A stretch of DNA of 64,000 bases from Candidatus Bathyarchaeota archaeon (GTDB taxonomy: Archaea; Thermoproteota; Bathyarchaeia; 40CM-2-53-6), in assembly GCA_963726255.1 (NCBI GenBank), contig CAVSBL010000002.1, forward strand, positions 704,001 to 768,000. Reading direction: 5' to 3'. The notes beneath the pieces are model-generated. The model was not told the origin of the DNA. It searched no databases and saw nothing but the letters and a program-made list of their open reading frames with translations. Positions 25,461-44,812 of this stretch are shown here, one piece after another. Position 1 is the stretch's first letter, and each line of letters opens with the position of its first letter. The translations under genes and the position numbers were made by a program.

Positions 25461-26243
25461 CTAATGGCGCTGTGAACGACGTTGCATTCCCAGAAGGCTT
25501 GGAAACGCCGCTCGGCAGGCCGAGGCTACGGGCGGGGTCAATACGACCATGAATGGAATCTCGGTGAAGTAGTTCGAGGCTGCCGCTAGGTAAATGAAAG
25601 CGCCTGCCAAAGGTTTGGTTCCAAGACCGAGTATTATCGGAAGCCCGAAGATCGCGCTATAAGCCACCAGCCCTAGGCCAATTATTCCTGTGCCCAGCGC
25701 GAGCCCGATTGAGGCTGCAACCTCAAAATCGGCCCACCTGTTTCGAAGCACGAATAGTGCGATAACGGCGAAAACAACAACTAGGCCTGCGAACCCGAGG
25801 TATGAGGTCGAAGAACCCAATGCTGCTGCTCCGAAGAGTACGTACACACTGTAGACCAGCGCCAGAGCATAAGCTGGTTGAATGATCAGGCTCAATGATA
25901 GGAGGAGGCGCCTGACCAACGGTCGGAAATCGTGGTTCGGCAACCAGCCTATGATGAAGAAGCCAACAAAATTGGATGGAACGCCGACGAGCAGACTCAA
26001 CAGTGCATCGTGGTGTCCATAGATAACGTCTGCAAGAAAGATACCGATTGCAGCTCCCACGCCACCTACCCACGGACCAAAGAGCACGCTGAAAGTAGCC
26101 GGTACAAAGACCTGCGGCCAGAACCTTACTCCGAAAATTAGCAGTGGAAAGGCTGTCCAGAGAGCACCGATCCCTGCGTAGACAGCTGCGTTCATGGCAG
26201 TCATGACCAGCCGAAGTGACATCGGGTAGCTTCTGCTGCGCAT
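25461..26243 (-). CDS. ECF transporter S-component (QueT-like), probably for a CoA precursor
   Basis: AMNAAVYA..GVRFWPQVFVPATFSVLFGPWVGGVGAAIGIFLAD; multi-TM; co-oriented with pantoate kinase and coaD. Confidence 0.75.
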   Translation of the reverse strand: MRSRSYPMSLRLVMTAMNAAVYAGIGALWTAFPLLIFGVRFWPQVFVPATFSVLFGPWVGGVGAAIGIFLADVIYGHHDALLSLLVGVPSNFVGFFIIGWLPNHDFRPLVRRLLLSLSLIIQPAYALALVYSVYVLFGAAALGSSTSYLGFAGLVVVFAVIALFVLRNRWADFEVAASIGLALGTGIIGLGLVAYSAIFGLPIILGLGTKPLAGAFIYLAAASNYFTEIPFMVVLTPPVASACRAAFPSLLGMQRRSQRH

Positions 26244-26335
26244 TGTGAACCTATTTCCAACTCAGCACTGTCTGCTTATTCTAGCTTATCTTCGGAGTGC
26301 ATTGGATAGTATGACTGTTCGCCTAGCCCAACGAA

Positions 26336-26346
26336 ATCTTAAGATA
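26336..26346 (+). promoter_or_regulatory. TATA box of the tRNA-Gln gene
   Basis: atcttaagata about 30 nt upstream of the tRNA 5' end. Confidence 0.55.
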
Positions 26347-26373
26347 AGCCTGCTCGGCTCGCTTGTGCCCGGT

Positions 26374-26528
26374 AGCCCGGTGGTGTAGTGGTCAATCCAC
26401 AGGCGTGGGACTACGCATAGCATTGGCGCCAGATAACAGCCAATAGACGGCTCTGGATCCCTCCACCAAAAGGAGAAACCTGCCGACGGGAGATAAGCAA
26501 CACCCGAATTCGAATCTCCCCCGGGCTA
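26374..26528 (+). tRNA. tRNA-Gln(CUG) with four introns (21/22, 29/30, 37/38, 53/54); CCA encoded at 26529-26531
   Basis: Exons 26374-26395, 26415-26422, 26449-26456, 26478-26492 and 26509-26528 join to a 73-nt cloverleaf: AGCCCGG TG GTGT AGTGGTCAA GCAT A GCAGG CTCTGGA CCTGC CGAC GGGAG TTCGAAT CTCCC CCGGGCT A. Intron junctions form BHB/BHL-like motifs. Confidence 0.88.
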
Positions 26529-26656
26529 CCATTATGCACCGTGCTGTTGTCTAAACATTGGAGCATGCTGCTGTCGACTAACTACAATGTTGGGGGACGT
26601 TCTAATGTCGCGTCAGGTTTGTCGGGGAAGGGTAACGACCCTCCGGTAACCCGCAC

Positions 26657-44245: not shown

Positions 44246-44812
44246 TCAGGCTTTGAACCAGCGAAACACAAGGTAATCCACTTTCTTACTCCGCCCTCTA
44301 GGTACTGCAATCGTGAATTGCTTTCGAACGGTGGTCGCCAAGCGGCCCGCTAACACAACCTCGAAGGGCCCCATGGTCTCCTCTTCCCTCTTCACTGTAA
44401 CAATGAACGGGGCGTGGTCGATTCCCGGGCCATGTTCGTAGATAGCAAAGTCCGACCCGAATCTTATCCCAGGGGTCACGATGAGCCCCTTCTCACGCAG
44501 GTTCTCGTAAGCGCTGTATCCCAGATCAAACTGCTTGTAAGTCTTGTTGGCCACTCTTAGGAGCATCGACCTGCTAACAGGTTCAGAGTTCTTGACGTTA
44601 ACCACTTTGATTATTTTTCGATCGAGAAGGTACAACGCCTCCATCAAATCGAGCATCAAGGGTGCCTTGAACTCTTGTTCCGGTTTGGGCTTTGGAATCC
44701 CTACAGGCTTACCGAAGAAACCCATCCGGTAAAGTGCCAATCCCTCTCTATGGTCCCACACAATGAGCCTGGTTCCTATCAATTCCGCGGCAATGGGCTT
44801 CATGTGCGGCAC
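44246..44812 (-). CDS. endA: tRNA-intron endonuclease, catalytic subunit, with crenarchaeal-specific-loop-like insert
   Basis: GIRFGSDFAIYEHGPGIDHA..GRLATTVRK (Y-H-K triad); GFFGKPVGIPKPK loop. Confidence 0.93.
   Translation of the reverse strand: MPHMKPIAAELIGTRLIVWDHREGLALYRMGFFGKPVGIPKPKPEQEFKAPLMLDLMEALYLLDRKIIKVVNVKNSEPVSRSMLLRVANKTYKQFDLGYSAYENLREKGLIVTPGIRFGSDFAIYEHGPGIDHAPFIVTVKREEETMGPFEVVLAGRLATTVRKQFTIAVPRGRSKKVDYLVFRWFKA

Follow-up and report, generated by a model that had tools for sequence, protein, structure and literature searches.

The DNA analyzed here is a window of 64,000 nucleotides (nt) from the genome of Candidatus Bathyarchaeota archaeon (contig CAVSBL010000002.1, positions 704,001 to 768,000), and positions within it are counted from its first letter. 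At 26374-26531 lies a gene for tRNA-Gln(CUG), in which five exons and four introns follow one another on a single strand within 158 nt. The locus is flanked by open frames and is overlapped only by frames of at most 51 amino acids (aa). The exons were joined by coordinate in a script, and the joined sequence was then given to ARAGORN. The spliced product has 76 nt, which correspond to a 73-nt tRNA and the encoded CCA, and it was called as tRNA-Gln(ctg). According to ARAGORN, its cloverleaf consists of an acceptor stem of 7 base pairs (bp), a D stem of 4 bp (two of them G-U), an anticodon stem of 5 bp, and a T stem of 5 bp. The spliced tRNA has an A1-U72 pair and the A73 discriminator, and its CCA is genomically encoded. 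An earlier note, made from the letters of this DNA, had proposed an interrupted tRNA-Gln(CUG) gene here; its coordinates and lengths for all exons and introns were reproduced exactly (Table 1), and the 73-nt cloverleaf with two exons of 8 nt that it described is the one that ARAGORN recognizes after splicing. On the evidence of its sequence, the locus is a genuine four-intron tRNA-Gln(CUG) gene with introns at positions 21/22, 29/30, 37/38, and 53/54. It is very probably the functional and apparently sole tRNA-Gln(CUG) gene of the genome, with four introns of the EndA type and a predicted course of splicing. This reading is supported by the collinearity with compact homologues, the conservation of exons and not of introns in 17 genes, the presence of an EndA of predicted broad specificity and of RtcB, a promoter-like block, and the finding of no second gene in the genome searches.

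Table 1. Features of the tRNA-Gln(CUG) gene, followed by the upstream block and the genes of the candidate processing enzymes. Class symbols: H, central helix; B, bulge; h and h', outer and inner flanking helices. BRE, transcription factor B recognition element.
Feature	Position	Strand	Length	Description
Exon 1	26374-26395	+	22 nt	acceptor 5' strand, positions 8-9, D stem 5' strand, D loop to position 21
Intron 1	26396-26414	+	19 nt	position 21/22; HBh'; central helix GGTC/GACT (4/4), inner helix CCAC/GTGG, bulges AAT and ACG
Exon 2	26415-26422	+	8 nt	D stem 3' strand, position 26, anticodon stem bases 1-3
Intron 2	26423-26448	+	26 nt	position 29/30; relaxed; central helix ATAG/ATAG (2/4)
Exon 3	26449-26456	+	8 nt	last two bases of anticodon stem 5' strand, loop 32-37; anticodon CTG at 26452-26454
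Intron 3	26457-26477	+	21 nt	canonical position 37/38; hBH; central helix CTCT/GGAG (4/4); outer helix is the anticodon stem
Exon 4	26478-26492	+	15 nt	position 38, anticodon stem 3' strand, 4-nt variable loop, T stem 5' strand
Intron 4	26493-26508	+	16 nt	position 53/54; hBH; central helix CGGG/CCCG (4/4); outer helix 3 bp
Exon 5	26509-26531	+	23 nt	T loop, T stem 3' strand, acceptor 3' strand, A73, CCA at 26529-26531
BRE/TATA-like block	26330-26346	+		AACGAAA, two variable bases, TTAAGATA; ends 27 nt before the tRNA 5' end
EndA catalytic (alpha) subunit gene	44246-44812	-	188 aa	PF01974 (2.1e-22), PF02778 (4.1e-15)
EndA beta-like gene	G000:C2:1451462-1452025		187 aa	both EndA domains
RtcB ligase gene	C2:1172995-1174305			PF01139 (8.5e-172), full length

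The exon-intron boundaries were examined by comparison with compact homologues, which is independent of the splicing motif. The exact 22-nt exon 1 was found in at least 119 stretches of a collection of species-representative genomes, mostly of Bathyarchaeia, and most of these loci carry an uninterrupted 73-nt tRNA-Gln with the anticodon UUG or CUG. In other archaea, 96 compact tRNA-Gln genes of 73 nt are collinear with the spliced product, and the spliced alignment of the locus to such genes consists of five collinear blocks. The closest of the 96 is an intron-less CUG gene of Bathyarchaeia (L083), which is identical to the spliced product at 69 of 73 positions. Because of this comparison, the boundaries are fixed, up to shifts that leave the product unchanged.

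The 301-nt locus was matched in 36 of the 41 searched genomes, the source genome included. Seventeen of 22 congeneric genomes gave a match, with the whole gene in 16 (L002-L017) and a part of it on a short contig in one (G012); no locus match was found in the other five, whose completeness is 76-93%. When the 16 whole genes were aligned with that of the source genome, the exons proved near-invariant, exons 1, 2, and 3 being the same in 17 of 17, and the four insertions were co-located and differed in substitutions and length. Identity among the 17 genes falls to 78-96% in the introns and flanks. On the intron side, the strand pairing with the exon is conserved (GACT in 16 genes and GGCT in one for intron 1, GGAG in 17 for intron 3, and CCCG in 13 for intron 4). 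Introns 1 and 3 have a central helix of 4/4 pairs in each of the 17 genes, as has intron 4 in all 13 genes that carry it at 53/54. The two bases before the 3' junction vary in each intron, namely AC, AT, AA, or AG in intron 1, AC, AA, or AT in intron 2, AA, AG, or AT in intron 3, and AA, TA, or CA in intron 4. Within the inner helix of intron 1, pair 2 is formed by C-G in 16 genes and by T-A in the remaining one, and the intron loops differ in length among the orthologues. Such a pattern is expected of spliced introns that are selected for the bulge-helix-bulge (BHB) shape, not of a decaying gene.

The T-arm intron occupies two positions within the genus, 53/54 in 13 genes and 59/60 in three (L015-L017). 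The intron at 59/60 forms a 4/4 central helix (TTCG/CGAA) and an inner helix of 2-4 bp, and the 5-bp T stem serves as its outer helix. Introns of both types end in ...CGAA, adjoining or pairing with the palindromic TTCGAA of the T loop, which suggests that the intron slid between 53/54 and 59/60 rather than being gained twice.

The splice motifs were evaluated with a model in which the cut falls after the second base of each 3-nt bulge. The helices that the earlier note had read in introns 1, 3, and 4 are present as listed in Table 1, and its relaxed ATAG/ATAG helix of intron 2 was confirmed with the same two pairs out of four. Intron 1 has an inner helix of 4 bp and no outer helix. The outer helix of intron 2 has 2 bp and its inner helix 4 bp in this genome, and the latter has 4-5 bp across the orthologues. 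Every intron has at least one flanking helix (h or h') beside the central helix. At 200,000 random sites of the genome with matching lengths, a 4/4 central helix was found in 1.95%, a 4/4 helix together with a flanking helix of at least 3 bp in 0.2%, and the pattern of intron 2 in 0.1%. The first two frequencies indicate that the motifs exceed chance. Within the gene region, the true splice sites rank among the best 1-3 of 232-242 positions of the same length.

The helices depend on one another in a way that points to ordered splicing, as the earlier note had suggested from intron 2. Introns 1 and 4 already have their full motifs in the primary transcript. In intron 2, the loss of intron 1 extends the outer helix from 2 to 3 bp, which is the completion anticipated in that note, and the dependence is larger for intron 3, whose outer helix has 2 bp in the primary transcript and 5 bp without intron 2. 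The energy calculations agree with the helix counts. The cost of forcing the BHB of intron 2 decreases from 8.3 to 2.4 kcal/mol after the removal of intron 1, that of intron 3 from 9.2 to 4.9 kcal/mol after the removal of introns 1 and 2, and that of intron 4 from 3.6 to 1.5-1.7 kcal/mol as the upstream introns go. Because intron 2 gains an outer pair without intron 1, and intron 3 regains the anticodon stem without intron 2, a preferred removal order of 1, 2, and 3 is likely in this model.

Upstream of the gene, the block at 26330-26346 is near-invariant in 17 of 17 orthologous loci, and the upstream sequence around it cannot be aligned. Its TATA-like part lies ~30 nt upstream of the tRNA start. 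The block resembles the archaeal consensus of BRE and TATA, and we take it to be a putative promoter on account of this resemblance. The gene of the EndA alpha subunit is located in the same window, ~18 kb from the tRNA-Gln(CUG) gene. Its best relative of solved structure is 3p1z_B (E 7.7e-41), the catalytic subunit of the heterotetrameric enzyme of Aeropyrum pernix. In the alignment, the catalytic residues are matched by Y125, H133, and K164, and K41 and K43 fall opposite K44 and R46, two residues of the Crenarchaea-specific loop in the A. pernix enzyme. The available text of PMC3241643 describes 3P1Z, His133, and this loop, in which K44 is required to cut introns at the anticodon and D loops. 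The alpha subunit of the window is expected to be the enzyme that cuts the four introns. In the best alignment of the 187-aa beta-like protein, no residue is aligned at the catalytic His, which fits a structural beta subunit. The host enzyme is predicted to be of the (alpha-beta)2 type with the specific loop and would be able to cut relaxed motifs. Two genes with EndA domains were found in each of four other Bathyarchaeia genomes examined, one of which has compact tRNA genes. Because this compact-tRNA genome also has two, EndA permits the accumulation of introns but does not explain it.

Here, we propose a pathway of expression based on the gene structure, its conservation, the motifs, and the presence of the enzyme genes. 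Transcription would start from the gene's own BRE/TATA-like promoter and would give a precursor of ~160 nt, from which the 5' leader would be trimmed. A heterotetrameric EndA of the alpha2beta2 type would cut each intron within the two 3-nt bulges of a BHB or relaxed (HBh' or hBH) motif, probably in the order given above. RtcB would then ligate the exons, and the end product would be the 73-nt tRNA with the encoded CCA, A1-U72, and A73.

A check called for by the earlier note, whether another tRNA-Gln(CUG) gene exists, was made by an exon 1 scan, by acceptor pairing, and by a homology-guided census, and none was found in the genome. The exact exon 1 occurs once, and acceptor ends of the Gln type pair at two places only. 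The second place is a gene for tRNA-Gln(UUG) at C2:30717-30831 (+), which shares the acceptor and T arm with the CUG gene and has two introns (at ~20/21 in the D loop and at 59/60), its anticodon loop being uninterrupted. In 968 long open frames, 47% of the Gln codons are CAG. In the census, the 39 compact tRNAs of another Bathyarchaeia genome (G041, with 41 tRNA matches above the Rfam cut-off) and the source genome's own spliced tRNA-Gln(CUG) were used as queries in a spliced dynamic-programming (DP) alignment, and the products were checked with ARAGORN. Loci with a DP score below 73 were dropped as noise, and intervening sequences were counted when they had at least 10 nt.

Several observations weigh against this reading of the locus. 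The minimum free energy (MFE) fold of the 158-nt precursor (-56.2 kcal/mol) includes, besides the acceptor stem, both the central and the inner helix of intron 1. The central helices of introns 2-4 form 0/4 pairs in it, so that of the four motifs only that of intron 1 is formed in the primary transcript. Even in intron 1, the bases at the 3' cleavage site are paired in this fold instead of bulging out, and forcing each motif of introns 2-4 costs 3.6-9.2 kcal/mol. The z-score of the precursor is modest (-2.38, with 4 of 200 shuffles folding equally well), and the introns are not identifiable from folding alone. Covariation, counted by a script relative to the splice sites, is sparse, since there is no variation in the exon strands. 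Just two of the four central pairs of intron 2 are canonical here. In one orthologue (L011, in genome G013), the T loop is three bases too long even when the fourth intron is taken out; a defective copy, an error in assembly, or an unrecognized variant could each explain this. The census recovered 38 tRNA genes against roughly 46 expected, and ~8, such as those for Asn, Tyr, and Trp, were unrecovered. Given this incompleteness, a second, more disrupted or split tRNA-Gln(CUG) gene is in the strict sense conceivable.

The alternative that survives best would be a real, expressed gene whose introns are not all removed by EndA independently and at exactly these boundaries, intron 2 for instance being removed in another register, with an extra factor, or by a composite cut. 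It is favored by the weak central helix of intron 2, which reaches 3/4 in 11 of 17 orthologues and 4/4 in none of the genus, by the absence of its motif from every MFE fold, and by the two 8-nt exons between close introns, which make the motifs overlap and depend on one another. However, the junction given in Table 1 is the only one for intron 2 that restores the 5-bp anticodon stem and matches the compact homologues. The spacing between its outer and inner helices (7 nt on each strand) is that of a BHB, and the base before its 3' junction varies among C, A, and T, as expected of a bulge. In four of the other genera examined (L193, L194, L197, and L200), the motif at 29/30 is 4/4 and hBHBh'-like; in the source genus it is relaxed. 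We consider this alternative improbable.

A decaying pseudogene would be a tRNA gene in which insertions have accumulated, with CAG being read by tRNA-Gln(UUG) or by an undetected gene. The presence of tRNA-Gln(UUG) in the genome, the aberrant T loop of L011, and the ~8 tRNAs unrecovered by the census are in line with it. Decay is difficult to reconcile with exons that stay near-invariant in 17 species while introns and flanks diverge, with the location of each insertion at a BHB-like site, and with the conserved promoter-like block upstream. Moreover, most other tRNA genes of the genome are likewise interrupted, and they cannot all be pseudogenes. A pseudogene is thus very unlikely, even more so than deviant processing.

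That the insertions are an assembly or binning artefact of a single metagenome-assembled genome (MAG), for which the estimated contamination of 9.3% in the source MAG would speak, is scarcely credible, as the four-intron structure recurs in 16 other congeneric genomes and in contigs from two other studies. Across 26200-26531, the long contigs of these two runs (X5, 1,462 nt; X6, 15,009 nt) differ from the window in 13-14 letters and two small gaps, and they therefore carry all four insertions.

Three further candidates were rejected. An intron-less form of the DNA was considered for a joint skipping 26396-26502, which a single contig shows in X5 and another in X6 (side 22, likeness threshold 85). 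It was discarded because the joint fits no combination of intron boundaries, its short side has fewer than 30 letters, and exon 1 and the T arm are common to other tRNA-Gln genes. A split or permuted tRNA is ruled out by the five exons lying in order, on one strand, within 158 nt. Self-splicing group I or II introns are ruled out by the intron lengths of just 16-26 nt and by the absence of any Rfam family in the window at the gathering score.

The four-intron tRNA-Gln(CUG) gene is not an isolated case in its genome. The census gave 38 tRNA genes with 84 intervening sequences, or 2.21 per gene, and at least one was present in 95% and at least two in 76% of the genes; these figures are approximate. 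Only Arg(CCG) and Asp(GUC) are uninterrupted among the census genes. Boundaries or anticodons are doubtful for Leu(GAG), with an 'intron' of 182 nt, for Arg at C2:979121-979430, and for Lys(UUU). A BHB-guided refinement of the boundaries yielded 36 genes with 79 introns; the motif scores rose and the anticodons were sometimes altered, which indicates overfitting, and the refinement was used for intron counts only. Other genes with four introns are the initiator tRNA-Met at C2:42667-42814 (-), with central helices of 4, 3, 4, and 4 out of 4, and tRNA-Glu(CUC) at C2:1095561-1095710 (-), with 4/4 in all of them. The tRNA-Lys(UUU) gene at C2:1440516-1440704 probably has four as well, with poorly resolved boundaries.

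Beyond the genus, tRNA-Gln(CUG) genes with 2-4 introns were found in nine other genera of the order (nine of ten families searched; L188-L201, L084, and L100). Their introns are located at 9/10, 21/22, 29/30, 37/38, 53/54, and 59/60, and the four introns of L194 and L196 are in a different combination of positions. Archaeal tRNA-Gln genes were also observed on contigs labeled as bacterial MAGs of Limnocylindrales and Acidiferrales (L033 and L067), the latter locus being of the four-intron form, which suggests that these contigs are mis-binned Bathyarchaeia.

Standard tools miss the gene, as the earlier note had expected. ARAGORN found no tRNA gene in the whole 64-kb window and none in the unspliced locus, intron mode included, and Rfam was likewise blank on the unspliced DNA of the window at the gathering score. 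A search of the whole genome with RF00005 at E up to 10 gave 32 places, none of which is the tRNA-Gln(CUG) locus. In intron mode, ARAGORN made 35 calls in the whole genome, some with implausible introns of up to 2,802 nt. Two of the calls were labeled tRNA-Gln(ctg), at C2:1093569-1093675 and C2:2185881-2186009; spliced alignment reassigned them to Met(CAT) and Gly(GCC), with two introns each. With stricter filters, the number of tRNAs that the Rfam model detects in each of the 41 genomes of the order is just 5-27, also where completeness is rated at 98-100%. The usual quality rule for MAGs, the Minimum Information about a Metagenome-Assembled Genome (MIMAG) standard, asks for at least 18 tRNAs. 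MAGs with so few tRNAs would fail this tRNA-count criterion through gene structure and not through incompleteness.

Multi-intron tRNA genes are best known from Thermoproteales (Sugahara et al. 2008, as cited in PMC4033280 and PMC8450103). In the available text of these two papers, these genes resemble the present one in having several short introns at canonical and noncanonical positions, strict and relaxed BHB motifs (hBH and HBh'), and an (alpha-beta)2 EndA with the specific loop. PMC4033280 gives a maximum of three introns per tRNA gene in Thermoproteales, and PMC8450103 gives the same maximum, with Pyrobaculum calidifontis as the richest genome (71 introns in 46 genes, 1.54 per gene). By comparison, tRNA-Gln(CUG) has four introns, and the source genome has ~2.2 per gene. 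The hosts also differ: Thermoproteales are hyperthermophilic crenarchaea, whereas the present lineage belongs to Bathyarchaeia from sediment, soil, and peat metagenomes.

A closer parallel in number is found in Asgard archaea, which belong to a different phylum from Bathyarchaeia. According to the available text of an October 2026 preprint (bioRxiv 10.64898/2026.10.13.758758), which follows 10.1101/2023.11.21.568159, the tRNA genes of three Asgard families contain 2.20 intervening sequences on average and as many as five at most; at least one is present in 97% and at least two in 71% of the genes. Nearly all tRNA genes are therefore interrupted in both cases (2.20, 97%, and 71% versus 2.21, 95%, and 76% in our rough census), and in both the introns of the D arm are missed by standard tools and were found via compact relatives. 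The word 'Bathyarchae' is absent from the main text of the preprint. The earlier note had placed four introns at or beyond the known upper end; this holds against the papers up to 2021, in whose available text the maximum is three, and does not hold against the Asgard preprint.

Two other systems are related in part. The available text of PMC3728597 reports that Cyanidioschyzon merolae has up to three BHB-bounded introns per tRNA gene (D arm, 37/38, and T loop), and reverse transcription PCR showed their ordered removal following motif stability. These are nuclear genes of a eukaryote with at most three introns, whereas tRNA-Gln(CUG) has four. The split and tri-split tRNAs of Nanoarchaeum equitans and Caldivirga maquilingensis (PMC4033280, available text) are composed of pieces joined at BHB-like motifs by the same endonuclease and ligase that are predicted to act here. 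Their pieces come from separate loci and are joined in trans, in contrast to the ordered exons of tRNA-Gln(CUG).

A literature search on Bathyarchaeia and tRNA introns turned up, in the text available, no report of tRNA introns in this group, and a search for four introns in tRNA genes found no four-intron tRNA. The tRNA-Gln(CUG) gene is thus a new lineage for a known phenomenon, above the textbook three introns and not above the Asgard figures, and the heavy, order-wide interruption of tRNA genes in Bathyarchaeia is undescribed in the literature searched. In a broader proposal, which we hold to be evenly balanced between right and wrong, a whole order of Bathyarchaeia of sediments, soils, and peat would be the third archaeal lineage to have evolved hyper-interrupted tRNA genes independently, after Thermoproteales and certain Asgard families. 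It would have ~2.2 introns per gene and more than 90% of its genes interrupted, with one and the same tRNA gene having 2-4 introns drawn from six positions and with an intron that moved between 53/54 and 59/60 within one genus, and the packed introns would impose an obligatory cascade of removal from 1 to 2 to 3.

As the relatives of the tRNA-Gln(CUG) gene show, heavy interruption of tRNA genes extends to Bathyarchaeia, which are among the most abundant archaeal groups of sediments and soils. Automated annotation would list tRNAs such as tRNA-Gln(CUG) as missing, and complete MAGs would be downgraded by the tRNA-count rule. The 17 congeneric copies and the variants with 2-4 introns in nine other genera of the order provide comparative material, with which the gain, loss, and shift of tRNA introns, the limits of BHB degeneracy, and a fixed removal order of packed introns become testable.

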